A DNA stretch of 64,000 bases from a virus (IMGVR_UViG_3300017743_000002:38381-102380), one strand, 5' to 3'; numbered from the stretch's first letter, positions 1 to 58,947 are shown. The notes: generated by a model from the sequence alone, not told the origin. A program made the numbers and translations.

Positions 1-2602
1 ATTTATCTCTTAGGTAAACTAAGTTAGGAAACTGAGTATCAATAAAGTTTACAGTTTCTTCTTGAATTAAACTTCTATTTTCAACAATTAAATCGTATGT
101 TGATTGTATGATTGCTGATGCCGTTACGAATGTATCTTTAACAACTAATTTTTTAGATAAATCTCTTGCCCACTCTATACCATCTAATGTTGGTAATAGT
201 TGTGTTGTTGTAGCAGTTGATGGGTATAGGTAATAGAACTCACCAGCTATTCTACTTCGTTCATTACCACCATATCTTAAATCAGTTGAAACTGCATCTA
301 TAATATGTCCAACATCTCTTTTACATTTATCTTCATCATAATCAAAGTTTCTCCAAGAAGATGATACATAAGAAATTACCTGATTTTGTATAAATAATTT
401 ATTATTTGTTAATAAATCATATCCGTTTATAACATTTACAGATGGCTCTACATAGGTTACATCACCAATCACCCTTTCTGCTATTCCACCAGCATATCTA
501 ATAGCATCTAATGTTTGTTGTTTTTGTGATGATGTTGCTTCTGATGGATATAGGTAATAGAAATTTCCATTTAAAACGGATTCTTCATTACCACCATATA
601 ATAAGTCGTGAGCTGCACCACTTACAATATACCCTAAATCTCTTTTACAAGTTGTTTCATTATAATCAAATGTACTCCAAGATGAAGAAAGATATGCTAT
701 TGTTTCTTCTTGAATAAATGATAAATTACCTAATAATGCATTGTATCCATTTTGATAATCAATTGATGGATTTTCAAATGAAGAACTTTGAATAATACTA
801 GGTGCATAATCTGGACCTAATTCTAAAATTCTATAAACAGTTGCAAATGAAGAACTAATCTTATTTCTTACTTCTGCACTTGAAGAAATATCAGTAATAA
901 ATTGAGGTGTTTCAGTTATTTTTATATTACCAGCATTTGATGATGTAATTGGTGGTAATGGATTATCAGTATCATCCAGTCCAAACTCTACTATTCGTAA
1001 AACAGAATTATAATTTCTATTAATTATATCAACTTCAGTTTGAGTTGTTGCATCTGAAGTTATATAAGGAGTTTCATTTCCAACTTTTACTAAACCATCT
1101 ATATTATCTACTAAAGTATAACTAGCAGTTGCTCTAGCTCCAATTTCTAACGTTTCTTTTACTTTATCAAATCTATCTTCGATTATTGCTAATTCAGTAG
1201 AGGTTGCTGATGTTGAACCTGTTATTTGATTTCCAAATGATACATTCCAAACCGAACCAGTGTTATATCCTCTTGTTGCTGATTTAGCTAATAAAGATGG
1301 AATATTACTTATACCACTTGATACAATGTTTGAAACTAATCTATATTCTGATTTTGCCTGTTCTGCAACTTTATCAGATGAATTATTACTACTAAATTGT
1401 TGTAATTCATCAGTTACTTTGATACCATCATTTGTATTTGGTACAAATTCAGGTATTGCAGTTAACCCATCCTCAATTGTATCAATAATAATTGTATAAC
1501 CATCTCTTACTCTATTAAATGCTTCTAAGTTACCACCACTACCAGTAATAAACCTAGACCCACTAGCATACATACCAAAATCACCAAACGATGTGTTTGA
1601 GTTTAGAAGTACTGCTTGTCCACCATCTAATACCTTTACAGAATATGCTGAGAAGTTTGTAAAGAAGGATACCAACTGAATAAATCCTCTACCTACAACT
1701 TGACAACCCACACCATTAGGTGCGATTTGTGTATATGCATCCAATACCATTGAAGCAAGAGGTGAATCAGGATGGATTATATTTCCATCTACATTCAATC
1801 CACCACCACCAGCAGGAATATCCTCATATGCTTCTAAGAATGAGTTCTCCTGATTCGAAATCATCGAACAGTTCTGAACATAAGGAGATGTTGTAATAAA
1901 TGAGTTTGGTGCGAATGCAATTGCGAAACCACTTCGAGAGTTATCTACTGATGGAAATACTCTCAATCCAGCAAATGTCATCTCTGAAAGGTAACATCCA
2001 CTATTTACCCAAAATAAATCTTCGTTTTCGTTTTTAGCTACAATCTTAGTTACCCTTAAACCAGCTCCCCATACAGTTGTATTCTTTGGAAGTTCAATTG
2101 GGTTTTCTTCTAAGTAAGTTCCAGCAGATACTTCAATTGCAAAACCAGTAAATAAAGAACCAGTTGGTAACCCAAATCTACCATCATCTCCCGCAGTTGC
2201 TAATTCAGCAGCTCTTTTTACAGTTCTTAATGGAAATTGTGGTGTTCTACCATCATTTGTATCATCACCAGAAGTTGAAGATACATAAATAGTAGCATCC
2301 ATTGCTCCGAAATCTTCAGGTTTGATTCCACCAAATAATCTTGAATCTAACGATTCTAATGAAACGGATGATGTTAATTCTAATGCTTGGTCACCAACTA
2401 CATTAAGAGGTCCATCAATAGTAAGTGAACCACTTAATTCAACTGAACCAGTTATAGTAGATTTTTCAGAAGGGTCTGAACCTAAAGTAAAACTTTGAGA
2501 TACAAGTAAAGAGCCAGATATAGATACACCTTGCGCAAAGGAGGTATCCCTAATAAAATCCTGTATCTCTTCTACCTGTTTTCTGGATATTAATCTTGCC
2601 AT
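1..2602 (-). CDS. Large virion structural protein (pectin-lyase-like beta-helix followed by helical CKRD repeats), truncated at the left window edge
   Basis: Absent from the ORF track because it runs off the window. ATG at 2602 reads MARLISRKQVEEIQDF... It contains YVSSTSGDDTNDG..P.RTVKRA, AGTYLEENPI and SPYVQNCS (beta-helix entry motifs seen in marine T4-like phage structural proteins), then ~108-aa repeats with CKRD.G.I......DL.YGGNE.S. Confidence 0.75.
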   Translation of the reverse strand, partial: MARLISRKQVEEIQDFIRDTSFAQGVSISGSLLVSQSFTLGSDPSEKSTITGSVELSGSLTIDGPLNVVGDQALELTSSVSLESLDSRLFGGIKPEDFGAMDATIYVSSTSGDDTNDGRTPQFPLRTVKRAAELATAGDDGRFGLPTGSLFTGFAIEVSAGTYLEENPIELPKNTTVWGAGLRVTKIVAKNENEDLFWVNSGCYLSEMTFAGLRVFPSVDNSRSGFAIAFAPNSFITTSPYVQNCSMISNQENSFLEAYEDIPAGGGGLNVDGNIIHPDSPLASMVLDAYTQIAPNGVGCQVVGRGFIQLVSFFTNFSAYSVKVLDGGQAVLLNSNTSFGDFGMYASGSRFITGSGGNLEAFNRVRDGYTIIIDTIEDGLTAIPEFVPNTNDGIKVTDELQQFSSNNSSDKVAEQAKSEYRLVSNIVSSGISNIPSLLAKSATRGYNTGSVWNVSFGNQITGSTSATSTELAIIEDRFDKVKETLEIGARATASYTLVDNIDGLVKVGNETPYITSDATTQTEVDIINRNYNSVLRIVEFGLDDTDNPLPPITSSNAGNIKITETPQFITDISSSAEVRNKISSSFATVYRILELGPDYAPSIIQSSSFENPSIDYQNGYNALLGNLSFIQEETIAYLSSSWSTFDYNETTCKRDLGYIVSGAAHDLLYGGNEESVLNGNFYYLYPSEATSSQKQQTLDAIRYAGGIAERVIGDVTYVEPSVNVINGYDLLTNNKLFIQNQVISYVSSSWRNFDYDEDKCKRDVGHIIDAVSTDLRYGGNERSRIAGEFYYLYPSTATTTQLLPTLDGIEWARDLSKKLVVKDTFVTASAIIQSTYDLIVENRSLIQEETVNFIDTQFPNLVYLRDK

Positions 2603-2606
2603 TCCT

Positions 2607-3092
2607 TTATTCTATTTCTACTATTTTACCCTTAATTGTAAATGCGTTTGTTGGTACTTCCAACGGTACTCTTGTGATATCTTCATTAAATATCATTCTA
2701 ATTTCTTTTGAACCACTAGCGTATTGACCTGATAATAATTCAGTTCCCTCACCATCATATAACTTTACATTATATTTAGTTCTATCTTGCTTTACTCCAT
2801 AAAGAAATACATCTAAATAATCAAATGCGTTATCTACTTGTAAATCTTCATATACAAATCTATATCCTTCTATATCTACTCTATCCAATAAATCACCATC
2901 ATTGTTACCATCTTTAGAACCTAAAAATAAAGTAAATAATTTTTGAGTAGCAGAATCCAAAGATGATGAGGTTGGAGTAAACTCATTGATAAACGTATCT
3001 TCTATTACTTCCAATACAAAATTTTTGAAAGATTGTCTATCTCTCTTTTTTACTGTATTACCTGTGTATATGTTTGGAACCTTTCTACTCAT
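2607..3092 (-). CDS. Hypothetical virion protein, paralogous to the C-terminal domain of the gp15-like protein
   Basis: 161 aa. DVFLYGV...Y...IRMIF...FTIKGKI resembles the C-terminus of 3493..4623. Translationally coupled to its neighbours. Confidence 0.6.
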   Translation of the reverse strand: MSRKVPNIYTGNTVKKRDRQSFKNFVLEVIEDTFINEFTPTSSSLDSATQKLFTLFLGSKDGNNDGDLLDRVDIEGYRFVYEDLQVDNAFDYLDVFLYGVKQDRTKYNVKLYDGEGTELLSGQYASGSKEIRMIFNEDITRVPLEVPTNAFTIKGKIVEIE

Positions 3093-6362: not shown

Positions 6363-7964
6363 TTAGATAGATTGTAAATCTTTAACAAAAATCTTACCAT
6401 AGTACTCAGGTCTAACCATCTTCTTAGCGTATCTCGTCATTACTCCTCTTCTTGGAGTGAAGTTTTGAGGGTCATACACTAATGGAGTCATGATTAACGG
6501 TACATACGGAGCATATACAGCACCAGTTTCTAGGAAGTTGCTTCCTCTAAATCCTAACAAGATTTCATTTGAAGTCATGTAAGGGTTTTTGTAAACTGTG
6601 TATCTGTTAGCAATCGCACCTACTGAAGTTACACCAGCAGCGAAAGACATTGCATCTTTATCAGCTGATACACTAAATCCAGGGATTGATTCTAAGATAG
6701 TACATACATCAGGAGAAGCAACTACGAAGTTAGCTCCACCTCTTAAAGTCAATTGGTGAATCTTATTAGATACTTTGTTTAATTTAGTACCTAAAGTTTG
6801 GAACCAAGTGTTCTTTTGGTAAGCAACAGCAGAACTACCAGCTGACCAAGATGAACCATTGTACTCTTCACCTATTGTAGCTGACCAGTATTCAACAGTT
6901 AAAGCGTTAGATTTTAACATATCTAAGATTTCTAAATCAATCTCTAATGAGATGTAATCAGATAACATAGAAGTTAATTCAGCTTCAGCATCGATTGAGT
7001 GGTAAGCGTTAAGGTCTTGCGCCAACTCAGGAGTCCACACAGCCTTTAGTTTTCTAGTCTTAGCAACAATTGCTTCAGACTTCAACTCTAGGTCTACTTC
7101 AGGAATCTGAAGGTCATCACCAGTTGCTGGACCAGGAGATGTAAATGAAGATTGCTCAAAGTCACCTCTGTTATAATCAGCAGGGATATGAGAAAACTTA
7201 ACAGTTACAGCGTTTGCATCTACAGCAGCAGATGTTCCAACGAAGAATATAAGGTTATCACCATCAACTTTGTTGAATTGAGAGTAGTTTGCACCATTAA
7301 TATCAGTACCACTTACAGCGAAAGATGCAATTGCATCTACATCAGCAGTAGCTGAGATATCAGATTTAGCAATAGTTAATTTTTGGATATCACCAACTTC
7401 AACAGAAGCAGATAATGCACCATCAAATCCTATATCAGCATGTGAAGCAGAAGCCCAAGTTTGAGCACCAGTTGCTACACTTACAGAATCTTCATTGATA
7501 GAATATCCAAATGCACCATTACCATATAAACCACCAGCAGCTTCACCAGTTCTACCTGAACCTAATGAACCTGAGTTACCAAATAAAGATTCGTGCTTTA
7601 GTTTTCCACCATTTTCCGAACCATATTTGAAATCTAGATAGAATACAAGTCCTGAAGGTAAGTTCATTGGTTGTACACTAACGAATTCTTTAGAAGCAAT
7701 CTCACCAAAGATTCTTCTAACAAGAGGAAGGGCTACACCACTCCACTCTTCACTATTTGCGGCTGTCCCAGTCTGAGATGCCTCATCAAGCAATTGTTTT
7801 GCTTGGTTTTCTAAAAGAACAGACATTGCGCCTTGCTCTTTTTCATTTAAACCTTCTAGAAGTCCAGTTTGTTCCCATTTACCTTTTAGTTGTCTTGTTT
7901 CATTCAACATTACAGCTTGTGGGTTCTTTCCTTCCATTAGTTTAGATAAATCAAAATTTGCCAT
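6363..7964 (-). CDS. gp23: Major capsid protein (T4 gp23-like)
   Basis: LLENQ, LPLVRR, VSVQPMNLPSGLVFYL, AKTRKLKAVWTPELAQDLNAYHSIDAEAEL, YAPYVPL and FTPRRGVMTRY. Confidence 0.97.
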   Translation of the reverse strand: MANFDLSKLMEGKNPQAVMLNETRQLKGKWEQTGLLEGLNEKEQGAMSVLLENQAKQLLDEASQTGTAANSEEWSGVALPLVRRIFGEIASKEFVSVQPMNLPSGLVFYLDFKYGSENGGKLKHESLFGNSGSLGSGRTGEAAGGLYGNGAFGYSINEDSVSVATGAQTWASASHADIGFDGALSASVEVGDIQKLTIAKSDISATADVDAIASFAVSGTDINGANYSQFNKVDGDNLIFFVGTSAAVDANAVTVKFSHIPADYNRGDFEQSSFTSPGPATGDDLQIPEVDLELKSEAIVAKTRKLKAVWTPELAQDLNAYHSIDAEAELTSMLSDYISLEIDLEILDMLKSNALTVEYWSATIGEEYNGSSWSAGSSAVAYQKNTWFQTLGTKLNKVSNKIHQLTLRGGANFVVASPDVCTILESIPGFSVSADKDAMSFAAGVTSVGAIANRYTVYKNPYMTSNEILLGFRGSNFLETGAVYAPYVPLIMTPLVYDPQNFTPRRGVMTRYAKKMVRPEYYGKIFVKDLQSI

Positions 7965-11342: not shown

Positions 11343-11929
11343 TATCCTAATTCCGTTATAATTTCTCTCATTAAGTCTTGTGCCTTACAAAAGTTCCCAC
11401 AAACATCAGTACCAATTTGTTTGGCTACTGATTCGTTCATTGGAGTCATAAATGCACCATGTGTAGATGGGTTGGAAACAAAATCCCAACCTATTAGTTC
11501 AAAATCTTCACCAACTAAAAGTTTGTTATCTTTCATTGGTTGAGTAGAACCCATACCTCTTGATGAGATACCTAAAAGGATTCCAGCTCTTAATAATTCT
11601 TTTAATATATTTCCAGAAGGAGTAGGTAAGATTTCAACTGTACCCATAACATCATTACCTTCCCAATGTACCTCTTTAATATTATGTGATACATTCTTTA
11701 GGTTAATAACTGAAGAATCTGGATGGTCTAATTCACCCAATGCTCTTCTTTCTTTAATTAAAGTTTGATATTTACTTATCTCTCTTTCTAATATTTCTTT
11801 TGGGTACACTCTACCATTTTGGTTTTCTGCACCTGAACGTTGAAGGACTCCTTTAACCAAAGTTCTACCTGATGAATCTTCGTTCACTCTTCCTTCAAAT
11901 AAGTTTGTTTCTATTAATAGATTCTTCAT
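11342..11929 (-). CDS. gp21: Prohead core protease (T4 gp21-like)
   Basis: NQNGRVYP, ALGELDHP, NVSH, GISSRGMGS and DFVSNPSTHGAF. Confidence 0.95.
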   Translation of the reverse strand: MKNLLIETNLFEGRVNEDSSGRTLVKGVLQRSGAENQNGRVYPKEILEREISKYQTLIKERRALGELDHPDSSVINLKNVSHNIKEVHWEGNDVMGTVEILPTPSGNILKELLRAGILLGISSRGMGSTQPMKDNKLLVGEDFELIGWDFVSNPSTHGAFMTPMNESVAKQIGTDVCGNFCKAQDLMREIITELG

Positions 11930-11940
11930 AATGGTTATCC

Positions 11941-12894
11941 TTATTTATGTTTTTTTAGTAACTCAGTAAATTCTCTTTTTACACCAAATGATAATCTTTT
12001 GTGAATTCCTTCTTTTACTAATACATTAATTATATCTTTTACATTTGAATTTTCAAGTGTAATTTTATTTTTTGATAATATTGGTCTTTCTAAAAATGTA
12101 TTTATTTCAAACCTTAATTCTTCAGAAAGTTTAATTCCTTCATAAATTGATTTAAGATATTTGATAAAATCTTTATCGTTTTTCATATCCTTAAAGCTCT
12201 TATCTGAAAAAATATTCTTTACAAAATCTTTAGCATCTTTTGAATCTTGCTTTATTTGGTCAATTAAACCAAACATACCTTCATTTACTGATTCCATTAA
12301 ACCAATTGCAGTAGTTCCAACAATTCTTTCAGCTCCATCAGCGTATTTCTTATTTAAGATTGCTACTTTAGCACCACCTATATTAATTACATACATTGGT
12401 AACATACTTGTACTAAAGTGATAATCTTTGATTTTTGCTTTCTTTAATTCTTTACCTATATCCATAAAAGATTTAGCACCTTTTACGAGGTCAGCAAGTT
12501 TATCTAAAGTCTTATCATGTTTTCCTTCTGAGATATTAGTTGAACAACCACCTTCGGTTACTCCACCACATCCACATCCACAATCATGTGATTCTTCTAC
12601 TTTTTCACCAGCTCTTAGAGCTGCTAAATCAGATGCTTCAATTTCACCATCACCATCAATATCTAACTGCTTTTGTTTATCAGTTAACTCTTCATTCTTT
12701 TCACCCTTACCATCCCAAGCAGAATCAATCTTATTAAAGAATGCTTTCTTTTCTTCATCACTCATTGATGGAATAGATTTTCCTGCCTTTTCTAAAGCTT
12801 TTTTGAAAAACGCTTGATAGTCACTCTCTTCAGCCATAATAGCTTTAAGGGTTTCTTTGATAGTGTCTCTGGTAATATTCATATTAATTGCCAA
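11941..12894 (-). CDS. Probable prohead core / internal protein with an EF-hand-like loop
   Basis: KQLDIDGDGEIEASDLAALR (DxDxDG loop), an HDCGCGCGG motif, and several ISE/VNE/LSE sites. Confidence 0.55.
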   Translation of the reverse strand: MAINMNITRDTIKETLKAIMAEESDYQAFFKKALEKAGKSIPSMSDEEKKAFFNKIDSAWDGKGEKNEELTDKQKQLDIDGDGEIEASDLAALRAGEKVEESHDCGCGCGGVTEGGCSTNISEGKHDKTLDKLADLVKGAKSFMDIGKELKKAKIKDYHFSTSMLPMYVINIGGAKVAILNKKYADGAERIVGTTAIGLMESVNEGMFGLIDQIKQDSKDAKDFVKNIFSDKSFKDMKNDKDFIKYLKSIYEGIKLSEELRFEINTFLERPILSKNKITLENSNVKDIINVLVKEGIHKRLSFGVKREFTELLKKHK

Positions 12895-13341
12895 TTATAA
12901 TTTACTAATCTGTGTTACAATAGTGTTCAATCTTTCTCTAATTTTGAACAAATTCTTTTGGGTTCTTTTCCAATATTGGTTTGAATTTAAATCACCTTCT
13001 TTTTTAATTCTACCATACCATCTTAGGAATGTTTCTATTTCAGAAAGTTGTTTATTAACTTGAGAAATTCCCCTACCAATTTTTTGCTTTGGAGAAGATT
13101 CATCTTTTTTTAATTCTAACCATCTATTTTCACTAACCCGTTTGTAACCATTTCCTTTATTTATGGCATCAACAAATTCATCATCATTTTCTTCTTCATC
13201 ATCAGTACCATCCGTATCTTTAAAAGCAATTGGAGTTTGGTATCCAGCCACATTAGATGTGGTGGTTGCTTCATCAACATCCAACTCTTCATTTTGGATT
13301 TCTTCAATTAAATCCTCAATAAGTTCTTTTAATTTAATCAT
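12895..13341 (-). CDS. Probable internal head protein
   Basis: MIKLKELIE leader, DEATTTSNVAGYQTP, a VSE site and a helical C-terminus. Confidence 0.5.
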   Translation of the reverse strand: MIKLKELIEDLIEEIQNEELDVDEATTTSNVAGYQTPIAFKDTDGTDDEEENDDEFVDAINKGNGYKRVSENRWLELKKDESSPKQKIGRGISQVNKQLSEIETFLRWYGRIKKEGDLNSNQYWKRTQKNLFKIRERLNTIVTQISKL

Positions 13342-14211
13342 TTATTTTTTGCTCTTCAATTCTTTAATTAATTCATAAGACATCATTAATGATGAAACAT
13401 GATTATCAGAAACAACTTTACCAATTTTAGTTTTAGCTAAAACAGAAACAGTTTCTGCTAATTTAATTTTGGTTACTTTATCTTTTATACCTTTGGATAA
13501 TGATTTTAACTCAGAAACAATAGAGGGTATTTGTTTTGAAATGTACGATTTAAAACCAGTAGTATTAGATAAGTTATTGATGTATTCTCTTAATAAGTTT
13601 TTTTGATTTTCATCTAAGTTAGAATACTTTTTGTTAAAAGTTTCTACTAATATCTTATAAGTAAGTAATCTTAAATCTTTATCTTGCTTTTTATAAGATT
13701 CTACAATCTGAGTATTAGTATCTTTTTTAGATGATAATGTAGATTGTTTAGATGTAATAGATTCAATAAGGGTAATTTTTGAATTGAATACATCCTTAAT
13801 ATCATAATTATCCATCTTCTTAGATTCAAAAATCTTATAGATAGATGCCAATACTCTATAATTAGATATTGGTGACGAAAGAAAATCATCCATATTGAAT
13901 GATTCATTAATCTTTTTAATTAGATTATACTTCTCTTTATGTAATTGTTTTTGGTCAATACGATTATGAGCTTCGTTAACAGTATCTATGAACTTCTCAG
14001 CTCTTGATTCTGAATTATACTTTTCCTTCATAAGAAGTTCGTATAATCGTAGCTCTTTATTTAACTCGGTTTTTGGACTAAAAAATTCACTAACGATTTT
14101 TTTAGCCTTCTCAGTAGCATCCCCATTGAGAACTTCTAACGTAATTTGTCTTACGAGAAGCTCAAATAGAATACCAGTATTCTTAAATTTTGAATGTTTT
14201 ACCCTCTTCAT
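13342..14211 (-). CDS. Hypothetical head-assembly protein
   Basis: 289-aa helical protein between portal and protease, preceded by a late box at 14262-14269. Confidence 0.55.
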   Translation of the reverse strand: MKRVKHSKFKNTGILFELLVRQITLEVLNGDATEKAKKIVSEFFSPKTELNKELRLYELLMKEKYNSESRAEKFIDTVNEAHNRIDQKQLHKEKYNLIKKINESFNMDDFLSSPISNYRVLASIYKIFESKKMDNYDIKDVFNSKITLIESITSKQSTLSSKKDTNTQIVESYKKQDKDLRLLTYKILVETFNKKYSNLDENQKNLLREYINNLSNTTGFKSYISKQIPSIVSELKSLSKGIKDKVTKIKLAETVSVLAKTKIGKVVSDNHVSSLMMSYELIKELKSKK

Positions 14212-14295
14212 TGTGTTTTTATCCTATAATAATATATCAATATACGATATAATACATCGTATATAAATATAAGTTAATTTTGATTTCCTAAAATT

Positions 14296-16053
14296 TTATT
14301 CATTAATCAAATTATCGTCATCTAAAAAGTCTCCGTTTTCACTCATTAACTTCCTTTTTGCCGAAACTCCGTTAACATATTCTTTAGCAACTTTTTGCGT
14401 AGTTTTACTAACTCTACCTTCAGTTTTCTTTAACGCTTTTTGATTTTCTTTTTTACCTAATGGGTCTCTCCCATAAGGATGTTTATCTTTACCATAGGTG
14501 TTTCCCTCTCTAGGTCTACCACCTTTGTTCTTTAATTCAGTTTTTAATTCTTCTAGTTCATCTTCAACATCAGTAGGTTCTTGCTCCATTGCTGGGTCAC
14601 TTCCTTCATCTTCAATTGAACGATATCTGAATCTATCTTTAAGGTCATTAACAAGTTGAACCTTTTGAAAGTCAACCTCATCATCACTAAAATTAAATAT
14701 ATTTTTATATGCCCAATCTTTAGATACCATATTTAATCCTTGAATATCAGAAACCAATCTAACTTTTTCACTCCATAAATTTACCTTTTCTTGCTCATAT
14801 ATAGTAGATGGATTAACTAAGTTTAGTTCAAAATCTACCATTTCTTTACCCTCAATACCTTGTGCAGCTAAATGAGTTACTGCTAACTTAGTTAATTCAG
14901 ATATTAAAGTTCTTTGGATTCTTTCGATTGTTCTTGCAAATCTTACATCTTCTGCAGCAAGAGTTGCTTTACCATTTACATTCTCATCATATCCCAAATA
15001 TGCTTTTGGAATCTTTAGAGCTGCAAACATTTTATTCTTTAAGTAATCAATATCATCAATTGCAGTATATTCTAAACCACCTAATGAATCTATTTGAGTA
15101 CCACTATCACCACCCCTAACAGGTAAGAAGAAATCTTCAGTTAGGTTTTGGATGTTATACTTTAAGTTATAATCACCAGTATTTTTATCTACAAATGGAG
15201 TTTTTTTCATTTTGTTGATAATTCTCTGCATATAGTTATCAACTTCTTGTGGTGGAATATTACCAATATCAATTTTGAAAACTCTCTTATCAGGTGCTCT
15301 CATAATTCTATGAATTAACATTGCATCTTCCATAAGAGAAACTTGTTTCCAAATTCTTCTACCATTCTCAATCATTGCTTTACCATAAGGTAAGAAGTTT
15401 GTATCTGATAATAATCTGAAATGTACTATTTCGTAGTTCTCATATTCACCTTTACCATTTGGGTCATGATTTACTTTGAACTTAATGTAGTTTGCATTGT
15501 TTGGGTCAGTATTTTCTAATCTTTCAGTTTCATAAACTGGAAGTGGTCTTACATTTATAATACCAACACCTGGCTGAATTTCTTGTAATAAAAAGAAATC
15601 ACCATACTTAACCATATTTCGTGTCCAAGACCATAGGTTAAATTCTATATTAAGAATATCATAGAAAAGATTCTCTAATATTTCTTTTATTTTTTCGTTT
15701 TTCGATTTAATTTGTACAACATCTCCAAATTCATTTTTTAATGTTGATTCATCTGCGTAGATATCTAATGCTGATGAAATAATCGGGTCATTATCCATTG
15801 CATCATAATCTCTGAAAAGTTCTCTTCTGACTTGATGGTATGCCATCGATTGAGCTGCCATCTGGTCTCCATAAAAAGACCTTTGTAGTTTGGTGTACCT
15901 ATCTCTTAAATTCATTAAGTTAGTACCACCCCTCTGTCTATCATCAGTATCAACTACCTTTCTCTTTCCATCTTTATCAACCTTTACGATTGCTTGAGTA
16001 GAAAAAAGTTTAGTTAACCTTTCAAAAAATGAACTATTATTTTGTTCTGCCAT
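14296..16053 (-). CDS. gp20: Portal protein (T4 gp20-like)
   Basis: LMEDAMLIHRIMRAPDKRVFKIDIGNIP, EDFFLPVRGG...TQIDSLGG, DIDYLKNKMFAALKIPK and EDVRFARTIERIQ. Confidence 0.96.
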   Translation of the reverse strand: MAEQNNSSFFERLTKLFSTQAIVKVDKDGKRKVVDTDDRQRGGTNLMNLRDRYTKLQRSFYGDQMAAQSMAYHQVRRELFRDYDAMDNDPIISSALDIYADESTLKNEFGDVVQIKSKNEKIKEILENLFYDILNIEFNLWSWTRNMVKYGDFFLLQEIQPGVGIINVRPLPVYETERLENTDPNNANYIKFKVNHDPNGKGEYENYEIVHFRLLSDTNFLPYGKAMIENGRRIWKQVSLMEDAMLIHRIMRAPDKRVFKIDIGNIPPQEVDNYMQRIINKMKKTPFVDKNTGDYNLKYNIQNLTEDFFLPVRGGDSGTQIDSLGGLEYTAIDDIDYLKNKMFAALKIPKAYLGYDENVNGKATLAAEDVRFARTIERIQRTLISELTKLAVTHLAAQGIEGKEMVDFELNLVNPSTIYEQEKVNLWSEKVRLVSDIQGLNMVSKDWAYKNIFNFSDDEVDFQKVQLVNDLKDRFRYRSIEDEGSDPAMEQEPTDVEDELEELKTELKNKGGRPREGNTYGKDKHPYGRDPLGKKENQKALKKTEGRVSKTTQKVAKEYVNGVSAKRKLMSENGDFLDDDNLINE

Positions 16054-16079
16054 TTTATTTACTTTATGTTATAATCTAA

Positions 16080-16110: not shown

Positions 16111-16116
16111 ATTTTA

Positions 16117-18157: not shown

Positions 18158-18164
18158 ACTAAAT

Positions 18165-45099: not shown

Positions 45100-46038
45100 C
45101 TATGTATCAAAACGAACTATGAAGTTCACTGGATAATCGGGTAATGATTTAATTGGTTGAGGTAACTTTGCTACACCCACCATATTGTTATCATTATCAT
45201 ATAAACCTATTGTTGTAATAAATGGTGCTAAATAAGAACCTGTTTGGTCAGTTGAACCACTTACTTCATAATCATCAAAACTTCCTACACTTACACCATC
45301 TATTGATGATACGATAGGATGTGATTTTCCTTTTACATATTTAGAACCTGGTTGATAAAATGATTGAGAAACATATTCTTGGTCTATCAATCTACTACCT
45401 GGCTTTGTAATACTAATAGTATTTTTTACACCACCAACTTCATGCACTGCCGTTGGGTTTTGTGATACGTTAAATTCGTTTTCATTTACTGATAGGAATA
45501 TTTCATTTTCGTAAATAGTCATTGTAGACCTATATGAAATATCAAAAGTTGTTAAAGATGTATTATCAACAATACCATCAGTTAAAACTATTAACCCCCT
45601 ATCGTAAAAAATATTTCCTTTTATATTAGATGCAGAATCTATTAGATTAGAATTACCATCATCTGTTAAATCAATTGTACCATATTCAACTTGTAATGAA
45701 CCTATCTTAACCCCCTCACCAAAATATTGTTGTGGAATTGAAAGTACTCCTATTGTATCACCAATAACTCTTTCATTAGTTGATGCATATGATTCTCTTT
45801 TCCCAACCTCCGTTAAAATAGATGATGTAGCTGGGTTTAGGTAGAATTGTGCTTTTACCGAATCATATAAAGTTCTTTTAGAGATTCCATTTGAATTTTT
45901 TACATCAGTATTCACATCATACAAGTCCGTTTGATTCGTACCATATAATGGTGTAATATCATCCTCATCCAAAGTCCATTCTTTATAAACTTTGAAAGGT
46001 CTTACTACAATATCCGATTTTGGAATTTCTTTTAGCAT
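45100..46038 (-). CDS. Virion baseplate / fibre-attachment protein
   Basis: C-terminal FITTIGLYDNDNNMVGVAKLPQPIK (tail-collar/DUF3751-like) and GNIFYDRGLIVL. Paralogous to 46119..47315. Confidence 0.6.
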   Translation of the reverse strand: MLKEIPKSDIVVRPFKVYKEWTLDEDDITPLYGTNQTDLYDVNTDVKNSNGISKRTLYDSVKAQFYLNPATSSILTEVGKRESYASTNERVIGDTIGVLSIPQQYFGEGVKIGSLQVEYGTIDLTDDGNSNLIDSASNIKGNIFYDRGLIVLTDGIVDNTSLTTFDISYRSTMTIYENEIFLSVNENEFNVSQNPTAVHEVGGVKNTISITKPGSRLIDQEYVSQSFYQPGSKYVKGKSHPIVSSIDGVSVGSFDDYEVSGSTDQTGSYLAPFITTIGLYDNDNNMVGVAKLPQPIKSLPDYPVNFIVRFDT

Positions 46039-48027: not shown

Positions 48028-51000
48028 TTAATCTACCTCTAAGATTGGTTCTCCACTTCCTCTACCAGTATCCGCAACTCTTAAAATGTTTGGATTAGTA
48101 GTAAATATTTCAACAGGTGATAACCCATCTGGGGTTGTATCAGCTGATTGTTTTGAACCTTCAAAGAATGAATTCTTCAATCCTTGTGATAAATTATTTT
48201 TGAATCTATAATGGGTTGGGAAATATCCATTTAATGGAATAACTTCAGTTATTTCATTCCCAACCGATGGTGGTGTTGAACCAATCGGAAGTATAGTAAC
48301 TTTACTTCTTGTTCTAATTACATCTTGCAATTCATATTCAACTTGTTCGTTATTTGAAGTTGCAGGGTATCCTTTGGTTTGAACACTAATTTTTTCTATG
48401 TACTCTTCTTTAGTTTTAAATATTAACTTTCTGGATGAAGTTACATTTCCTCTATAATCAATTGTATTTAATGAACCAGTTCCAGCTATTGGTGCGTATA
48501 ATCCAAATCCAGCATTTGATAATGAATTCGGGTCCATACCAACCTGTTGGAATGAATCACCCTCTACTAATGCTTCTAGTTTAGAACCATCAGGTACAAT
48601 TATTTCACTAAGATACGTTGGATAGTTTCCAACTAAGTTTGTATCCTCATCTACATCTATTGATGAATCATATTGTGGGTTGGTAGATGTTAATACTATT
48701 TCTTCCTCTTCATTAATAATTGCATCGTAGTTATCATATTGATGTGAAAGGTTTGCATCCTTTTCTACATCCAATGTTACACTAAATTGATTATTATCTC
48801 CAACTAAGTTTGTAGTTTCATCTACATCTATTGTAATATCTATACCTCGATTTACTGATTTTGGTTGTTTCCACTTAGTTTTACTTCTTTCTAAATAATG
48901 TGGTTCAATTAATAAACCTTTAGAAACCTTTGCTCTAGCAGGAACTAAATCTTCTAATACATCGAATAAAGATTTATCAATGTATCTGATTAATCTGATA
49001 TATTCGTAGATATCTCTATTTAATCTTTGGAAGTAATAATCTCTTACATCTTTTAATTCAGTATATTCATCTTTGTATTCATCAGCAGGTGCTCCAATAT
49101 AATTATCTATATTAAAGTTACCAAGTGATTTGATAATATCCATATTCAACTCTTTAATTGGTGAGAAGAATAATCCTAATCTAGATGAATCAATTGGTGC
49201 TCTATCTAATGATTTTTTAGTTGCCCTTACTTTGTATGATAAATCACTAACTAATGTTTGAGATTCAAATCTAATTTTATCAGCTTGATTAAATCCTAAT
49301 GAAGGAACCTGAGCCGTTACACTTCTTTCATATACCTCATAATTATAAGGATATGTGGATTGATTACTGAATCCAAATAGGGATGCCGATGGTAAATCAT
49401 ATTCACTACTAATAGCAACATTTAATATAGAAGAATCTACAAATCTATTCTTTGGATATTCAAAGTCAAATCTAACTAACATATCTTCAGATGAAGCAGT
49501 ATAGTTATTTCCTACGATTGAATCAGGCTGTTTTGTATGAGTTGTAATAATATTATCATCCAATGAATCTTTCCAAATTCTAAACTCATCTAAACTAATA
49601 TAAGATGAACTACCAACTAATAAAGTATCAAACGAATCCCATTGTAGTGATTCACTAATTATTGATGATGTATAATCATTTATTATTAATCTATTGTTTA
49701 AAGATTCTTTTACATACAAACCTAAAGATGCTGATGAGTTTGTATCCAATTCATTAGTTAATGCTATTGTTTTATAATTTTCATCAAATAATTTTATTTC
49801 GGATGATTCGATTTCATAGGTATTTGAACTTGATGATACAAATACTTTAATTTTACCAAATGAACCTGTTGTTTGTGTTGCTTCTAATTCAAAGAACGTA
49901 GTTACACCATCCCAACCTTTAACTAAATGTTGATTTCCAGTTGAATTGAATTTAACATTCATTTCAATAGTTTCTAAAGAATCAGATATTTCAGTTTCTT
50001 TCCATGGAAGTGTAATGTATTGGCCTCCTTCAAATTTTAAAGCAGATGTTCTATCTTCAAAGGTAAATGGTTGTGTACCCCCATCAGTTGGGTCAGTTGG
50101 TCCTCCAAACTCCATAATTGTAAGGAGTGATTGTGGAACACCATAACAAGCCATTACTGCCTTTAGTGAACGAGAAGTACCTTTATGTTTTAGTAAATAA
50201 GGTAAGTTATTAAGTATCCTTCTCCAAATTTCTTCGTTTGCAGATTTAAGTGATTGTTGATATTTTTGAGTACCATCTTTATGTTGTCCTAATGCGTATT
50301 CCCAAAGGAACTGAGAATCATAAGCTTTTTTACCATCCCATCCTAAAGATTCTAACATCGTAGAAACTAATTCATTTGAAAAACCTTTATTTGATTTATG
50401 TTTTGGATTTCTTAATTCATTCAATGTATTTATGTATGCCCAAATAACATCGAAATGATGTCCTAACATATCCATAAACAACATAAAGTCCTCATTCTGA
50501 TAATCTTCCGTAATAAATTCTGGTAGATTATTATTCATATAATCAACATTGTTTCTATCAAATATTGCTCCAGCATTTACAGCTCCATTATACCAAGAAA
50601 TAGCAGTTGAATCAGTTGTTGCTACGATTGAATTACCAACTTTTGGATATGCTAAATCATCGGTTGATGTATATAAGAAGTTTTCAAATCCATCAAATGA
50701 GCCAATTAAATTGTTAATGTTGTTTAATTGTTTGTTAGCTTGAATAGTGGTTATAGCAGTTACAACAGTTCCATCTAATTGTATATTATCATCATCTTCA
50801 GATATGATAACATAACCATCTTGCCCAGCACCTTCTGCTAAAACATATCCTAATTCAATATCAGTAGTTGTAAGTTCGGTATATTTAGATTGATACGATT
50901 CTAATAGTTCTATCTTATACCAAAAGTTTTTAATTCTTTCTTCAGCTGAACCAAAGTGTATATAGTTTTGGAAAGTGTAATCAGAACCTGTTACATACTC

Positions 51001-52176
51001 TATGTTTAATTTTTCAGTATTGATACCATTTTGATTTGCATACTTTCTAATTAAATCAGTATTGGTAGCTGAACCACTAGCTAATAAATCTTCATACATT
51101 TGGTAACCAATACCAGTATCAACCTCTAAAGAGAAGTTAGGTCCTTGTAATGGTGGGCAATATTTTTCATCACCACCAAATATGTTTATCGTATCAATAA
51201 TTGGTTTAGATTGAATTTTCGTAATCCAAACCTTTTGATTTGTTGTTACACTGGTAGGTAATGGTTCATATAGTTTTAAAATTAAACTATCTTCACTACC
51301 TAACCAAGTTGTAATTACTTTGTTATCACCATCACCTAAATGTAATAAGTGAGTTAAAAAATTTGATTCATCAAATTCACAATTTGAAAACTGAGATATA
51401 AACCCTTCTGCAAATCTATTGATTGCTACTTGTCTTGGTATATTTAAATCACCTTTATCAAATAAGATAGGTATATTTTCAGTTAATCCCTCAACAACTT
51501 TTTGGCCTTCTGTGTTTACTGGAATTAATTTTAGTGGTATTTTTACTTTATCACCTTCATCAAATACTTCAACATTATATCTCTCAATTAAATCTTTTAC
51601 ATTGAATGATTGTGTTCCTCTTACTGATAATTGTACAAAATCAGTAGAATTACCTACAAATAGTTTTACATAATTTGCATGTATTGAATCCCAACCAATA
51701 TTGAAATCAACATCATATCCTATAAAATCAGCACCTCTAACTACTTTAGGATATTCTATACTTCTAATATCAGGTGTTGTTACTGATACCTCATCAACAA
51801 CATTAATTACTAAATCAATAGCTCTATCTAATACATTTACAGTTTCCGAATCTTGTGCTCCTTCATTTAATTTTGTTACAATATCTTTTTGTTCCTCATT
51901 AACTTTAGCTTTATCAGATACGGATTCTTTTGGTAAATTAGATTTTAAACCTAATTCATTTACTGATACCTTTGGTTTGGTTTCATTGTTAATTGGTTTA
52001 GTAATATCAAACTTTGGCTGAACTCTACCTTTTTCTTTTTTTAGATTTTTTAATCCACGTCTAGCAAACGCATTTAAAGGACTTGCGTTTCTATTACGAT
52101 TACGATTATCCGCACGTCTTTTTAGGTTAGCTCTTAACCTAGCAAATATACCTCTTCTTTTTCTTCTTTCAGCCAT
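48028..52176 (-). CDS. Large baseplate wedge protein (gp7 / tail protein I-like core with a LamG-like domain)
   Basis: LPEFI...FMLFMDMLGHHFD and NLPYLLKHKGTSRSLKAVMACYGVP. LDEFRIW LamG-like segment. Confidence 0.65.
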   Translation of the reverse strand: MAERRKRRGIFARLRANLKRRADNRNRNRNASPLNAFARRGLKNLKKEKGRVQPKFDITKPINNETKPKVSVNELGLKSNLPKESVSDKAKVNEEQKDIVTKLNEGAQDSETVNVLDRAIDLVINVVDEVSVTTPDIRSIEYPKVVRGADFIGYDVDFNIGWDSIHANYVKLFVGNSTDFVQLSVRGTQSFNVKDLIERYNVEVFDEGDKVKIPLKLIPVNTEGQKVVEGLTENIPILFDKGDLNIPRQVAINRFAEGFISQFSNCEFDESNFLTHLLHLGDGDNKVITTWLGSEDSLILKLYEPLPTSVTTNQKVWITKIQSKPIIDTINIFGGDEKYCPPLQGPNFSLEVDTGIGYQMYEDLLASGSATNTDLIRKYANQNGINTEKLNIEYVTGSDYTFQNYIHFGSAEERIKNFWYKIELLESYQSKYTELTTTDIELGYVLAEGAGQDGYVIISEDDDNIQLDGTVVTAITTIQANKQLNNINNLIGSFDGFENFLYTSTDDLAYPKVGNSIVATTDSTAISWYNGAVNAGAIFDRNNVDYMNNNLPEFITEDYQNEDFMLFMDMLGHHFDVIWAYINTLNELRNPKHKSNKGFSNELVSTMLESLGWDGKKAYDSQFLWEYALGQHKDGTQKYQQSLKSANEEIWRRILNNLPYLLKHKGTSRSLKAVMACYGVPQSLLTIMEFGGPTDPTDGGTQPFTFEDRTSALKFEGGQYITLPWKETEISDSLETIEMNVKFNSTGNQHLVKGWDGVTTFFELEATQTTGSFGKIKVFVSSSSNTYEIESSEIKLFDENYKTIALTNELDTNSSASLGLYVKESLNNRLIINDYTSSIISESLQWDSFDTLLVGSSSYISLDEFRIWKDSLDDNIITTHTKQPDSIVGNNYTASSEDMLVRFDFEYPKNRFVDSSILNVAISSEYDLPSASLFGFSNQSTYPYNYEVYERSVTAQVPSLGFNQADKIRFESQTLVSDLSYKVRATKKSLDRAPIDSSRLGLFFSPIKELNMDIIKSLGNFNIDNYIGAPADEYKDEYTELKDVRDYYFQRLNRDIYEYIRLIRYIDKSLFDVLEDLVPARAKVSKGLLIEPHYLERSKTKWKQPKSVNRGIDITIDVDETTNLVGDNNQFSVTLDVEKDANLSHQYDNYDAIINEEEEIVLTSTNPQYDSSIDVDEDTNLVGNYPTYLSEIIVPDGSKLEALVEGDSFQQVGMDPNSLSNAGFGLYAPIAGTGSLNTIDYRGNVTSSRKLIFKTKEEYIEKISVQTKGYPATSNNEQVEYELQDVIRTRSKVTILPIGSTPPSVGNEITEVIPLNGYFPTHYRFKNNLSQGLKNSFFEGSKQSADTTPDGLSPVEIFTTNPNILRVADTGRGSGEPILEVD

Positions 52177-55831: not shown

Positions 55832-56914
55832 TTATGAAATTAAACTAAATGTGTAATCGTTATCAAAGAAATAATCAACTCCACCAATAGTAATCTTAAA
55901 TTCTATATTGTACACCCTATCAACTTCCCAATTAGATAAATTCAAATTGAAATAGTTACCATCGGTATCACAACTTAATTTTGTGTAATTACTAAATGGA
56001 ATAATTGTTTCACCTGAATGATAATCACATATTTGGTAGTATGATGTTGTTGGTAAAAATTTACTAATACCATATTGTGCCGTAGATGAGAATGTTTTTG
56101 TAGGATATAAATCTCTACCAACTACTCTCAACTTAGGTGTTGTATTTACTTTGTAATGCTTTTTAAAGTTTCTAATTCCAACTTTTATTTCTTCCGATGT
56201 TAGTTCAGTTAACGAACCAGTTGAAAATGATACATCATTCCATGCAATTCTAACTTTTGGTTGGTGAATAGTATTGGTTTCTTTACTAAAGAATTTTAAC
56301 ATACCATAATCATTTGAATCTTCCTCAGATGAATTTTCGTGCTTTACTATCAATCCTTCATTTTCAATTGAACCACTTAACCAACTTTGGAAAATTGTAG
56401 TTATATCTGCGTTTATATCTTCTGTTTTGTATGAGAATACTTGTGAACCACTTAAATTAGAATGCCAAACTCCTCCTCTACCAGCAAACGAGCCAGTTGA
56501 GTTAGTAGCAAATACAATATTACCACCTACTACGTTGTTTACCCATCTAAGTGATGAATCACCTTCTCTATAATTCCAAGTTACACCAGCGGTTTCTATT
56601 TCATCAAATCGAGTACCTTTACCCATTTCCCAACTTTGAGATACTGGATAAATTTCAATATTGAACTCTAAGGGTATTTCTTCAGATTCAGTTTCTCTCA
56701 TTATAAGTTTGGCCTCTTCAAACCCTACACTACCAGCTGATAGTGATGATGAGAAGTTCATTACGTCAAATTTAAGGAGTGCTCTGGATACATCTTTGAT
56801 ATTACCATAGTAAACCTTACTAACCTCTAATACCTCATCTAAACCAGCGTTTTGGTCAGGTTGTTGTAAGTACACCGATGCATCTTTTGATGCTGTTAAA
56901 AAATAGTATGCCAT
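55832..56914 (-). CDS. DNRLRE/CBM96-like domain virion protein
   Basis: ASKDASVY...NAG.DEVLEV...SRALLKFD...W.MG.G...VTW...FFSKET...PKV pattern. Confidence 0.65.
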   Translation of the reverse strand: MAYYFLTASKDASVYLQQPDQNAGLDEVLEVSKVYYGNIKDVSRALLKFDVMNFSSSLSAGSVGFEEAKLIMRETESEEIPLEFNIEIYPVSQSWEMGKGTRFDEIETAGVTWNYREGDSSLRWVNNVVGGNIVFATNSTGSFAGRGGVWHSNLSGSQVFSYKTEDINADITTIFQSWLSGSIENEGLIVKHENSSEEDSNDYGMLKFFSKETNTIHQPKVRIAWNDVSFSTGSLTELTSEEIKVGIRNFKKHYKVNTTPKLRVVGRDLYPTKTFSSTAQYGISKFLPTTSYYQICDYHSGETIIPFSNYTKLSCDTDGNYFNLNLSNWEVDRVYNIEFKITIGGVDYFFDNDYTFSLIS

Positions 56915-58947
56915 TATCTTGCCCTTCCTTTTATATCCGAATCTGGAAATTTAATTTCGAAAACCGATGGGTCTAAAGATGGATATAAAATCTTATCTTT
57001 AATCGCCGCTTCTATATTGTATGAATTGTTTGCATATTGCCCACCACACTTATTTATAATTTTTAATTTTGGTACTGAACTAACTCCATCAACATTTGCT
57101 ATAATTAATTCTAATTCAGAAATGTTAACTGTGTTATTAAATGTAAAATTATCTATATCAAAATATTCTTTTAGTTCAGATATACAATCAGATAATACTT
57201 CACTCTTATTGTAATTTTTTAATGTAATGATTTCAAACTCAAGTCCTATGTTAATAATAAAACCATCATTTATGTTTATACCATCAGTTAAAATTTTGTA
57301 TTCTGAAAGATATGTTTTTAAATTTTCTTTTATTGCTCTATTTAGATTTGATAATTTTTTATTTGAATCATATCCTAATAAATAAAGATTAATAGCAAAT
57401 GGATTATTCTTTTCATTATTATTAGAAGTTTTACCTAATAAGAATTTTTGAAGTTCATCTTTTATTGCTTTTCTATTTGGTTCTTCCTCTTCAGGTTTGT
57501 TAACAAATGATTCTACTAAATCAGTAAACTCATTAAGAACGTTAGGTGAAGCTAATATAGAAGCTGGTGAGTTATTATCCAACTTACCATCTGCCGTAGC
57601 GTATGCTTTTGCAATCGAACCAAATTTGGTTGGCATTGATAGAGCTCTTACTTGATAATCTTTAGCAGTTACTGCTCTATTTTGTGAACCAAAGTTAGCC
57701 AAAGCATTTTGTCTAATCTCTTCCATTGTATCACCACCCTTACCACCAGTTGCAGGAACCTCATTATCTACTGCGATAGAGTTTTTAGCTGCATTGTATA
57801 ATCCTAATTGGGTATCTGAGAATTTTGTTGTATCTTCTTCATACTCTACCCCATTGATTTGAGTAATACTACCTTTCTTTACATTTGATTCTACACCACC
57901 ACCAACTAAATACTTTACAGTTATAGTTGTATTAGATGGAGAGGTTCCATATGTTTTAGTTTTTAAGAAGTTCGTAGGGTCGAAAGATTCTTCTAATTTA
58001 GAAATAGAATTAGGTAATCCTAATCCAACATTTTTAAATGAAGGAATAATTGTTTCTTCACTAACTGTTGGGTCACCACTACCAAACTGAATAGTTGTTG
58101 TACTATCTGGATTTACTTGCTTAACAAATCTACGAGATGTTTTAAGTGTATTTAAAATATATGGAGTTGTTTCTTTAAATTGAAATAAATCAGGATCATT
58201 ATTTTCAGTATTTGGATAATCAACAAACACCAACTCTTGTGCTAAATAAGGTACTTCATAAAATTTGTTTCCATCCGAATCTCTTACATCGTAAATATCA
58301 ATAATATTAGTATCACCTAATTCAATACTTTGAAATTCTTTATATGACCCAAAAGTTTCTTCTTCAATTTTTACATCAGCTGAAATAGCTTGTACAAATT
58401 TCTTTACTAAATAAAAAGTTGCTTCTCCACTAATAGAATCAGTTTGATATATTGTTACTTCTCTATCAGACTCATCTGAAAAATCAACAACATCTTGTGT
58501 AACAAATTGTACACCATTTGTTGATTCAGCTCTCATACCTTCTTTGATTCTTAAAAAATAAGTTTCATCAAACGTATTATCAGCGCCAGTTCCAATTGAT
58601 GGAACTAATTGATAAACCGAAAGTGTTGTTACTGATGGAGATGTTACTTTTGGTTTGTATCCTAAATATTGTGAAAGTGCTATTACATTTTCAATATCAT
58701 CGGCATGAACCATTAATGATTCTTTTAAAGTATCATCAACATAATATGAAAGTGAATCACCAATATAAGATGCCATTTCAATGAACATCATACCTGGTGA
58801 TGATTCATTAAAGTCTGAATATGTTTGTGGGAAATAAGTTTTAGCAAACTCAATAAGATTACCTCTGAATTGTGTAAAATCCTTATTAAGGTACTTTATA
58901 TCTTTACCCTTATTTTTAAAGTTCTTTGATGTTTTTGTTATTGCCAT
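56914..58947 (-). CDS. gp6: Baseplate wedge protein (T4 gp6 / baseplate J-like)
   Basis: DFNESSPGMMFIEMASYIGDSLSYY, LGYKP, IQFGSG and ATGGKGGDTMEEIRQNA...QNRAVTAKDY. Confidence 0.9.
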   Translation of the reverse strand: MAITKTSKNFKNKGKDIKYLNKDFTQFRGNLIEFAKTYFPQTYSDFNESSPGMMFIEMASYIGDSLSYYVDDTLKESLMVHADDIENVIALSQYLGYKPKVTSPSVTTLSVYQLVPSIGTGADNTFDETYFLRIKEGMRAESTNGVQFVTQDVVDFSDESDREVTIYQTDSISGEATFYLVKKFVQAISADVKIEEETFGSYKEFQSIELGDTNIIDIYDVRDSDGNKFYEVPYLAQELVFVDYPNTENNDPDLFQFKETTPYILNTLKTSRRFVKQVNPDSTTTIQFGSGDPTVSEETIIPSFKNVGLGLPNSISKLEESFDPTNFLKTKTYGTSPSNTTITVKYLVGGGVESNVKKGSITQINGVEYEEDTTKFSDTQLGLYNAAKNSIAVDNEVPATGGKGGDTMEEIRQNALANFGSQNRAVTAKDYQVRALSMPTKFGSIAKAYATADGKLDNNSPASILASPNVLNEFTDLVESFVNKPEEEEPNRKAIKDELQKFLLGKTSNNNEKNNPFAINLYLLGYDSNKKLSNLNRAIKENLKTYLSEYKILTDGININDGFIINIGLEFEIITLKNYNKSEVLSDCISELKEYFDIDNFTFNNTVNISELELIIANVDGVSSVPKLKIINKCGGQYANNSYNIEAAIKDKILYPSLDPSVFEIKFPDSDIKGRAR

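Follow-up and report, generated by a model that had tools for sequence, protein, structure and literature searches.

The tail fibres of T-even phages contain boxes, for example the His boxes, that stand at fixed positions and serve in metal binding or recombination. The surface 'hair' of the Bacillus exosporium is made of collagen-like filaments of the BclA type, whose Gly-Pro-Thr triplets bear O-linked, rhamnose-based glycans added by enzymes other than those considered here. The virions of mycobacteriophages are reportedly O-glycosylated by phage-encoded glycosyltransferases, as Freeman et al. are said to have described in 2023 (cited in PMC11256854). In the literature that we searched, no relevant published acceptor motif for phage virion glycosylation was found. 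In bacteria, the protein O-heptosyltransferases of the Aah/TibC type (BAHTs) accept serines in short loops between strands, as the name of their family model, TIGR04414, also indicates (PMC4358343); TibC modifies Ser and not Thr, and its catalytic base, its sugar-binding residues and a four-cysteine iron finger have been named (PMC4358343). Here we analyze a stretch of 64,000 nucleotides from an uncultured aquatic phage (IMGVR_UViG_3300017743_000002:38381-102380), hereafter the window. It lies at the right-hand end of a viral contig of 102,380 bp (CheckV completeness 51%) and holds both a BAHT gene and a tripeptide, [ST][GAS]S, that recurs in the encoded tail proteins. A sequence-only reading had taken the tripeptide for the sequon of the phage heptosyltransferase, which would coat the outer virion with heptose. 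Our analysis bears out the motif excess and the identity of the enzyme; the link between the two failed, and a virion-wide heptose coat was not indicated.

The long ORFs (open reading frames) of the window, which has a G+C content of 31%, all lie on the minus strand, as do all window features given below.

An over-represented tripeptide on exterior tail proteins

Seven proteins of the window, the products of the ORFs ending at 2602, 3092, 38944, 46038, 47315, 52176 and 56914, together contain 90 instances of [ST][GAS]S, where shuffles in blocks of 10-50 amino acids (aa) predict 32.5-35.9 (z 9.7-10.2). The excess noticed by eye thus persists against shuffled sequences in seven exterior tail proteins with a z of about 10, and the over-frequency on outer tail proteins amounts to 2.5 to 4 times. 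The order of the residues matters: in the seven proteins SGS occurs 19 times against 5 for GSS and 8 for SSG, and TGS 22 times against 4-11 for each of its five permutations. Contig-wide, SGS (120 versus 48) and TGS (71 versus 33) exceed a first-order Markov expectation, by which NGS, GGS, AGS and SGG are depleted (SGG 17 versus 32), and in an unbiased tripeptide scan TGS was the most over-represented of those with non-trivial counts. TAS and SAS on their own are weak in the window. A hydrophobic residue had been said to precede the motif, and position -1 is indeed hydrophobic in 63-76% of cases against a background of 38%; position +3 is hydrophobic in 55-65% against the same background, and such flanks were not found around permuted control tripeptides.

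The individual motif strings that had been quoted are all present, including ISGSL, ITGSV, LSGSL and LTSSV among the N-terminal 80 aa of the protein whose ORF ends at 2602, eight of eight strings in a 3,357-aa protein, five SGS/TGS in a 398-aa protein and four in a 360-aa protein. Equally, there is no SGS/TGS in the terminase, the portal, Mre11-Rad50, the primase or a 727-aa glycosyltransferase (GT), and there is one in a 1,129-aa protein. The major capsid protein (6363-7964, phrog_138) does contain the NSGSL and LSASV ascribed to it but is not enriched (3 motifs versus 2.3 expected, p=0.41), and neither is the gp6-like baseplate wedge protein (56914-58947, phrog_219; 0 versus 1.7), the gp25-like protein, the portal or the adaptor, so that a virion-wide pattern falls away. 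Since the enzymes, portal, wedge and capsid carry the motif at or below expectation, the pattern is one of exterior tail proteins and not of the whole virion. The motif is confirmed as a real, non-compositional feature of these exterior tail proteins.

For comparison between genomes, the motif was measured blind over all ORFs of whole genomes, with expectations from 20-residue block shuffles in which Gly/Ser/Thr-rich low-complexity tracts were masked, and the presence of a BAHT was scored with the curated hidden Markov model (HMM) TIGR04414 in six frames. Among genomes with a BAHT, the ratio of observed to expected [ST]GS is 3.67 in this contig, 2.63 in the Microcystis phage Mel-JY01, 3.06 in the complete 183-kb genome G001, 1.14 in LR756501 (735 kb) and 1.34 in the complete 271-kb genome G002; among those without, it is 2.29 in the Flavobacterium phage immuto, 2.58 in the Rhodothermus phage RM378, 1.33 in LR756508, 0.58 in T4, 0.87 in T5 and 1.40 in S-PM2. 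Orthologues of the 398- and 360-aa proteins and of two further motif-rich proteins of 312 and 1,382 aa are enriched in Mel-JY01, immuto and G001 and weakly in LR756508; for the 1,382-aa protein, the counts are 18 versus 6.1 expected in Mel-JY01, 10 versus 4.8 in immuto and 38 versus 9.6 in G001. Orthologues of the gp6-like wedge hold 1 motif versus 0.9-1.5 expected. The sheath homologues of the clade are enriched (14 versus 5, 13 versus 4, and 10 versus 4.6 in immuto), and no ORF of T4 is, its sheath included. The motif excess thus characterizes exterior tail proteins in a single clade of aquatic, T4-like myoviruses, which includes this contig, Mel-JY01, immuto, RM378 and G001. Mel-JY01 and immuto are cultured phages, and a search of the literature on these two and RM378 returned nothing useful.

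The motif might nevertheless arise as a by-product, whether of composition, of mutation or recombination, or of a DNA signal such as an oligonucleotide repeated in fibre genes. The giant proteins are internally repetitive, and there is a strong GGT/AGT codon signature within the motif (Gly is GGT in 93-96% and the first Ser AGT in 59-74%), both of which would fit such an origin. A composition artefact is excluded, however, by the 10-50-aa block shuffles, by the permutation families and by the Markov-1 expectation, the excess outlasting even 10-aa shuffles and Markov-1 correction, and non-repetitive proteins are enriched as well (32 versus about 9 in five window ORFs), with the enzymes of the same genome staying at or below expectation. 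A DNA-level signal is excluded by the reading frame, the hexamer A[GC]TGGT occurring 360 times in the coding frame and only 3-22 times in any other frame or strand. The codon usage in the motif is a general Ser-Gly/Gly-Ser codon-pair effect: the AGT and GGT biases are the same at control sites and are missing in immuto although the motif is present there, which excludes motif-specific codon usage. Paralogy of the motif contexts is excluded by flanks without extended similarity, and a generic property of phage fibres by T4, T5 and S-PM2. The frame test and the codon test at control sites go most of the way to refuting the by-product explanation, which we regard as extremely improbable.

The codon-pair bias itself is marked. 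In this contig Gly before Ser is encoded by GGT in 81-96% of cases versus 56% otherwise, and in Mel-JY01 in 63-73% versus 33%; Ser before Gly is AGT in about 60% versus 23%. A bias of this kind was not seen in immuto.

The motif also turns over. Only 5 of 13, 3 of 15 and 4 of 36 motif columns are common to orthologues, the second figure being that of the 360-aa protein. In an alignment of 96 members of the family of the 398-aa protein (P398; 31-68% identity), 94 lie above expectation, with a mean of 7.0 motifs versus 2.5, and 61% of the instances are spread over 110 variable columns in which the other members carry assorted small polar residues. These comparisons indicate that the motif is gained and lost at differing positions among orthologues while its density stays. 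The P398 family is very large in metagenomes, with 1,781 representatives at 50% clustering, and an identical P398 protein is present on 36 contigs of up to 258 kb.

In an AlphaFold 2 (AF2) model of P398 (pLDDT 90.4), the motifs at 126, 199, 230, 247 and 285 are placed at strand ends or hairpins, motif 77 in a loop before a strand and motif 85 at a helix N-cap. In this one modeled protein, six of the seven would thus end a strand or lie in a loop next to one, and the remaining motif would cap a helix. Foldseek found no match of the model in the PDB at E<=0.001. This placement bears on a structural explanation, by which [ST]-G/A/S-S would be the means that this clade prefers for ending a beta-strand or forming a tight turn in beta-rich tail proteins; the motif would stay unmodified, passing down with the tail module and arising anew in variable loops. 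The motifs of the confident model at strand ends, in a hairpin and at a helix N-cap, together with hydrophobic flanks of the kind expected for strands, agree with such an idiom, and four conserved columns, which hold 39% of the instances in the P398 family and keep the motif in 57-81% of its 96 members, fit a structural role, as does the helix-capping motif. The excess moreover goes with the tail module, the orthologues of LR756508 still being enriched about 2x, and no glycosyltransferase can be separated from phylogeny. On the other hand, the same folds occur elsewhere without the motif, neither the T4 sheath nor, in S-PM2 and T5, the giant fibres being enriched; the motif is common to non-homologous exterior proteins and not to the interior virion proteins of the same phage; and homologues carry arbitrary small polar residues at the variable positions, which argues that the fold does not require it. 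We consider the purely structural explanation, the chief competitor of the reading that follows, rather unlikely.

The reading we prefer, to which we would give somewhat less than an even chance, is that the tripeptide could be a surface tag recognized by some factor distinct from the heptosyltransferase. It is favored only narrowly over a fold requirement, because of the turnover in variable columns, the lack of enrichment in the T4 sheath and the excess shared by non-homologous exterior proteins. On this reading the hydrophobic-[ST]-[GAS]-S-hydrophobic tripeptide is a real trait that selection maintains in the clade's exterior tail proteins; it is borne by the giant fibres and the baseplate-distal proteins and, among relatives, by the sheath as well.

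Profile searches of the window ORFs indicate the morphogenesis region of a T4-like myovirus, with matches to major capsid protein, prohead protease, portal, large terminase and gp6-like and gp25-like wedge proteins, and further to tail-fibre proteins, a Mre11-Rad50 fusion and primase. A megablast comparison of 20 kb of the window with phage records was negative. The ORF ending at 2602 (2-2602; PHROG tail-fibre matches; 18 motifs versus 5.1-5.8 expected) is the N-terminal 867 aa of a giant tail-fibre protein of 5,931 aa that extends upstream past the window edge, the full ORF (contig 23187-40982) holding 116 motifs versus 37.8 expected. It is adjoined by a 161-aa protein (2607-3092; 3 versus 0.2-0.6). 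The 3,357-aa giant fibre protein (28871-38944; Pfam matches; 40 versus 18.5-19.9) has a CBM5/12 carbohydrate-binding module at residues 1665-1708 and, at residues 2883-3025, a Hint/intein-splicing-like domain at 29 bits, below the cutoff, which may be an autoproteolytic or intein-like element. The remaining motif-rich proteins are a 312-aa baseplate-distal protein (45100-46038; 4 versus 1.1-1.3), the baseplate-module protein P398 (46119-47315; 7 versus 2.2-2.8), a fibre or baseplate protein of 1,382 aa (48028-52176; 12 versus 3.5-3.7) and the 360-aa protein downstream of the gp6-like wedge (55832-56914; 6 versus 1.6-2.0). Upstream of the window, the same contig carries three more giant genes, including the rest of the 5,931-aa protein; the other two encode proteins of 3,585 aa and at least 3,123 aa, each with long Gly-Thr/Ser-Ser triplet tracts.

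A phage heptosyltransferase and its relation to the tripeptide

The heptosyltransferase that had been read from the window is real, and it is a protein O-heptosyltransferase of the Aah/TibC type and not a lipopolysaccharide heptosyltransferase. Its ORF (24578-25723, 381 aa) matches TIGR04414, an equivalog model named 'autotransporter strand-loop-strand O-heptosyltransferase', at 294.1 bits (cutoff 200), with residues 20-379 covering model positions 10-373 of 374, and phmmer relates it to TibC (PDB 4RAP) at E=2e-49. In the alignment to 4RAP the catalytic Asp-110 and the sugar-binding Thr-226, Lys-230 and Trp-305 are conserved, and all four iron-finger cysteines (Cys-339, 342, 358 and 370) align; Arg-286 of TibC aligns with Val and Pro-300 with Gly.

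Downstream, the gene is flanked by a 127-aa HldE domain II-like heptose-1-phosphate adenylyltransferase (24194-24577; PF01467; best match TIGR02199 at 98.5 bits, below the cutoff of 181.5), followed by a 251-aa HldE domain I-like heptose-7-phosphate kinase (23446-24201; PfkB; best match TIGR02198 at 111 bits, below the cutoff of 345). Upstream, the 727-aa protein (25714-27897), which has Pfam matches to GT1, Methyltransf_24 and a GT25-like domain and is referred to below as the GT/MT partner, overlaps the start of the BAHT gene. No GmhA or GmhB was recognized in the window, and there is no autotransporter on the contig; the neighbors of the BAHT are the GT/MT partner, the HldE-like genes and a giant fibre gene. 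Relatives of the enzyme occur on 162 IMG/VR viral contigs, and in a neighborhood survey of 80 viral BAHT loci a homologous GT/MT partner adjoined the BAHT in 49, being fused to it in Mel-JY01. Close relatives keep the order giant fibre, small ORFs, GT/MT, BAHT, HldE halves and, further on, terminase and portal, the 3,357-aa fibre gene being syntenic with the cassette. We conclude that the BAHT, the split HldE and the GT/MT partner form a separate, mobile module.

Several variations on this cassette were observed. In distant lineages the BAHT is fused into multidomain proteins of 690-920 aa or lies beside collagen-like giant genes, and in at least nine distant viral lineages (L095, L098, L116, L117, L119, L122, L136, L137 and L142) the tail sheath and tail tube genes follow immediately downstream of it. 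One sub-lineage of close relatives (L079 and L081-L086) has the BAHT and the GT/MT partner and lacks both HldE-like genes, and must therefore rely on host ADP-heptose. A cassette for heptosylated DNA (bioRxiv 10.1101/2023.12.21.572611) was considered unlikely, because that pathway uses a T4 beta-GT-like enzyme (bioRxiv 10.1101/2023.12.21.572611), whereas the phage enzyme is a full BAHT with a substrate-binding iron finger.

That the tripeptide is the sequon of this enzyme had some points in its favor: the phage has a true BAHT with its own heptose-activation genes, BAHTs take serines in short inter-strand loops and the motifs of modeled P398 would mostly lie in comparable positions, many lineages have a motif-rich fibre or sheath gene next to the BAHT gene, and the ORFs flanking the BAHT in distant carriers are 2.8x enriched in [ST]GS. 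Among 12 genomes, however, motif excess and BAHT show a double dissociation. Equal enrichment in relatives without the transferase, an outcome that the sequence-only reading had itself set against its proposal, was found in immuto and RM378 (2.3-2.6x), in both of which a six-frame HMM search with TIGR04414 was negative, and the sheath and fibre families that adjoin the BAHT elsewhere are equally enriched in BAHT-less immuto. Conversely, the complete BAHT carriers LR756501 and G002, which belong to other clades, show no excess (1.1-1.3x).

The sequence signature of a true BAHT substrate is also different. As a positive control we took the AIDA-I gene directly downstream of a BAHT on plasmid CP053577: S[GA][GA] occurs 43 times versus 9.4 expected (z=12), in agreement with the mapped TibC sites N-S-G-G and T-S-A-A, and [ST][GAS]S 11 times versus 10.7 (z=0.1). 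In the phage, SGG is depleted, as noted above, and about half of the [ST]GS sites begin with Thr, which TibC does not take. A canonical BAHT substrate hidden in the phage was also sought, and no ORF was enriched in S[GA][GA] (0.85x overall). Motif and BAHT evolve independently and are two separate findings, not one system; to judge from the sequences, the motif is not the acceptor signal of the phage's Aah/TibC-type enzyme, and the heptose-sequon explanation is in our estimate very improbable. Nor do the data indicate a virion-wide heptose coat, as the capsid, portal and wedge lack the enrichment.

Collagen-like tracts, a GT1 pair and neighboring genes

The BAHT co-occurs with sequences of another class. 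Collagen-like tracts, defined as (G-X-Y)n with at least eight triplets, X mostly T/S, Y mostly S and very little Pro, amount to 1,272, 447, 9,165, 3,705, 3,711 and 597 aa in the six BAHT-positive genomes and to 0 aa in all six BAHT-negative ones (Fisher p=0.002), and the tract carriers include two clades unrelated to that of this phage. The 1,272 aa of this contig lie in two ORFs upstream of the window (G000:C1:1-9369 and 11503-22260) and contain a single proline, so that the proline-rich X/Y positions that stabilize the collagen triple helix are missing. The tract gene is about 1.7 kb from the BAHT in Mel-JY01 (ORF 635-3052) and about 6 kb in G002 and in the fragment G003, and in 34 of the 80 surveyed viral loci a tract lies no more than 10 kb from the BAHT. 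Two points count against a functional link: the tracts of this phage are about 41 kb from the BAHT, outside the window, and the association comes from 12 genomes and perhaps five carrier lineages. The proline-poor (Gly-Thr/Ser-Ser)n tracts of giant fibres are nonetheless the likeliest BAHT substrate, and the cassette would be a separate system acting on them.

The tag, by contrast with the cassette, would be read by a clade-wide factor, for which a conserved pair of family 1 glycosyltransferase (GT1) genes is the candidate; each complete motif-rich genome analyzed holds both genes or, in RM378, the first. Immuto has a glycan cluster with two GT1, two GT2, a DegT aminotransferase and a Methyltransf_24 domain, and profile and homology searches identified an adjacent GT1 pair at 49172-50614 and 50617-51927 of that genome. 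Homologues of the pair are found in Mel-JY01 and in G001 (G001:C1:31771-34525; 61% and 58% identity in G001). The pair is thus present in motif-rich G001, for which it had been predicted before the search, and absent from motif-poor G002; in the homologue search neither gene was detected in T4, T5, S-PM2, LR756501 or G002. We regard the pair as the best candidate for an enzyme that might read the tripeptide.

Several observations weigh against this assignment. The pair is not on this contig, whose completeness is about 51%, and in RM378 the first GT1 alone is present, at 26% identity. LR756508 also has the first GT1 only and is an intermediate case for the association, its tail module holding 12 motifs versus 5.8 expected and its genome-wide ratio being 1.3x despite the homologue. 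The pair sits with a DegT aminotransferase and a methyltransferase, so the cluster could serve another glycan. The association, good as it is, is confounded by phylogeny, the motif-rich genomes all being members of a single clade. Finally, that the tag is modified, and by which enzyme, is our inference. Two fragments say little on either side: the pair is not on the close relative G004, a 44% fragment, and it is present in G003 with no genome-wide motif excess, G003 being uninformative because its baseplate and fibre module is missing from the fragment. In G003 the first GT1 homologue (G003:C1:46871-48271, on a contig 53% complete) has two in-frame stops, TGA and TAA, inside the matched region and may be a pseudogene or a sequencing error.

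Taken together, the surface-tag reading and the tract association suggest a fuller picture, in which we place low confidence, of two independent virion-glycosylation systems: the GT1 pair acting on exposed loops of sheath, baseplate and fibre, and the mobile BAHT cassette acting on collagen-like fibres. The GT1 pair would target an O-glycosylation sequon of true dispersed type, with a turnover resembling that of glycan-shield sites in enveloped viruses, and the BAHT cassette, which some members of the clade have, would heptosylate, then extend and methylate, the proline-free (Gly-Thr/Ser-Ser)n fibres.

If the tripeptide does serve as a modification tag, abundant aquatic myoviruses would carry on their tail surfaces an O-glycosylation sequon that can be read from the genome, and virion glycosylation would become predictable from sequence, which bears on host recognition, aggregation, and grazing or immune evasion. 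The strict co-occurrence of BAHT and tracts suggests that an enzyme family known so far from bacterial adhesins alone has a further, new class of substrate, and would offer a testable explanation for how proline-free collagen-like tracts are stabilized or shielded.

Three other genes of the window have unusual architectures. The 1,129-aa protein (19543-22932) has an NMN-adenylyltransferase-like N-terminal domain followed by about 1,000 residues without family assignment, and its gene adjoins the BAHT cassette in close relatives too. A 276-aa nucleotide-sugar dehydrogenase (39195-40025; TIGR03026, 201.6 bits) matches only model positions 66-298 of 413 and appears truncated at both ends. Mre11 (SbcD-like) and Rad50 (SbcC-like) are fused into one protein of 1,043 aa (40028-43159).

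Comparison with known systems

The heptosyltransferase is closest to the TibC-TibA and Aah-AIDA-I pairs of Escherichia coli, in which the enzyme assembles as a dodecamer, transfers heptose to serine and is encoded beside its autotransporter substrate: it passes the equivalog model and keeps the catalytic Asp, three of the four sugar-binding residues and the four-cysteine iron finger. By analogy, it would act in the cytoplasm, with ADP-heptose, on serines of repetitive beta-rich or fibrous proteins. It differs from these enzymes in being phage-encoded, in lacking an autotransporter partner and in being paired or fused with a GT/methyltransferase, and TibC Arg-286 and Pro-300 are replaced. Its candidate substrates, moreover, are without the S-G-G/S-A-G signature of AIDA-I, the enzyme co-occurring with collagen-like Gly-Thr/Ser-Ser tracts and not with 19-residue beta-helix repeats, and the [ST][GAS]S motif does not track it. 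For a BAHT acting on (Gly-Thr/Ser-Ser)n, BclA offers an analogy, both having extended Gly-X-Y runs in which every triplet holds a hydroxyl residue; the phage tracts, however, are nearly proline-free, and their glycosylation is suggested by co-occurrence only.

For the tripeptide, the T-even boxes are comparable as a short element that recurs in otherwise divergent tail-fibre proteins, but the present motif turns over, is enriched in the coding frame only and does not occur in excess in T4 itself. A tag read by the GT1 pair has its nearest working analogy in the O-glycosylation of mycobacteriophages, where phage-encoded glycosyltransferases likewise act on the phage's own exposed structural proteins. 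The acceptors there are C-terminal stretches of capsid and tail-tube proteins, whereas the candidates here are tripeptides dispersed over tail, baseplate and fibre proteins.

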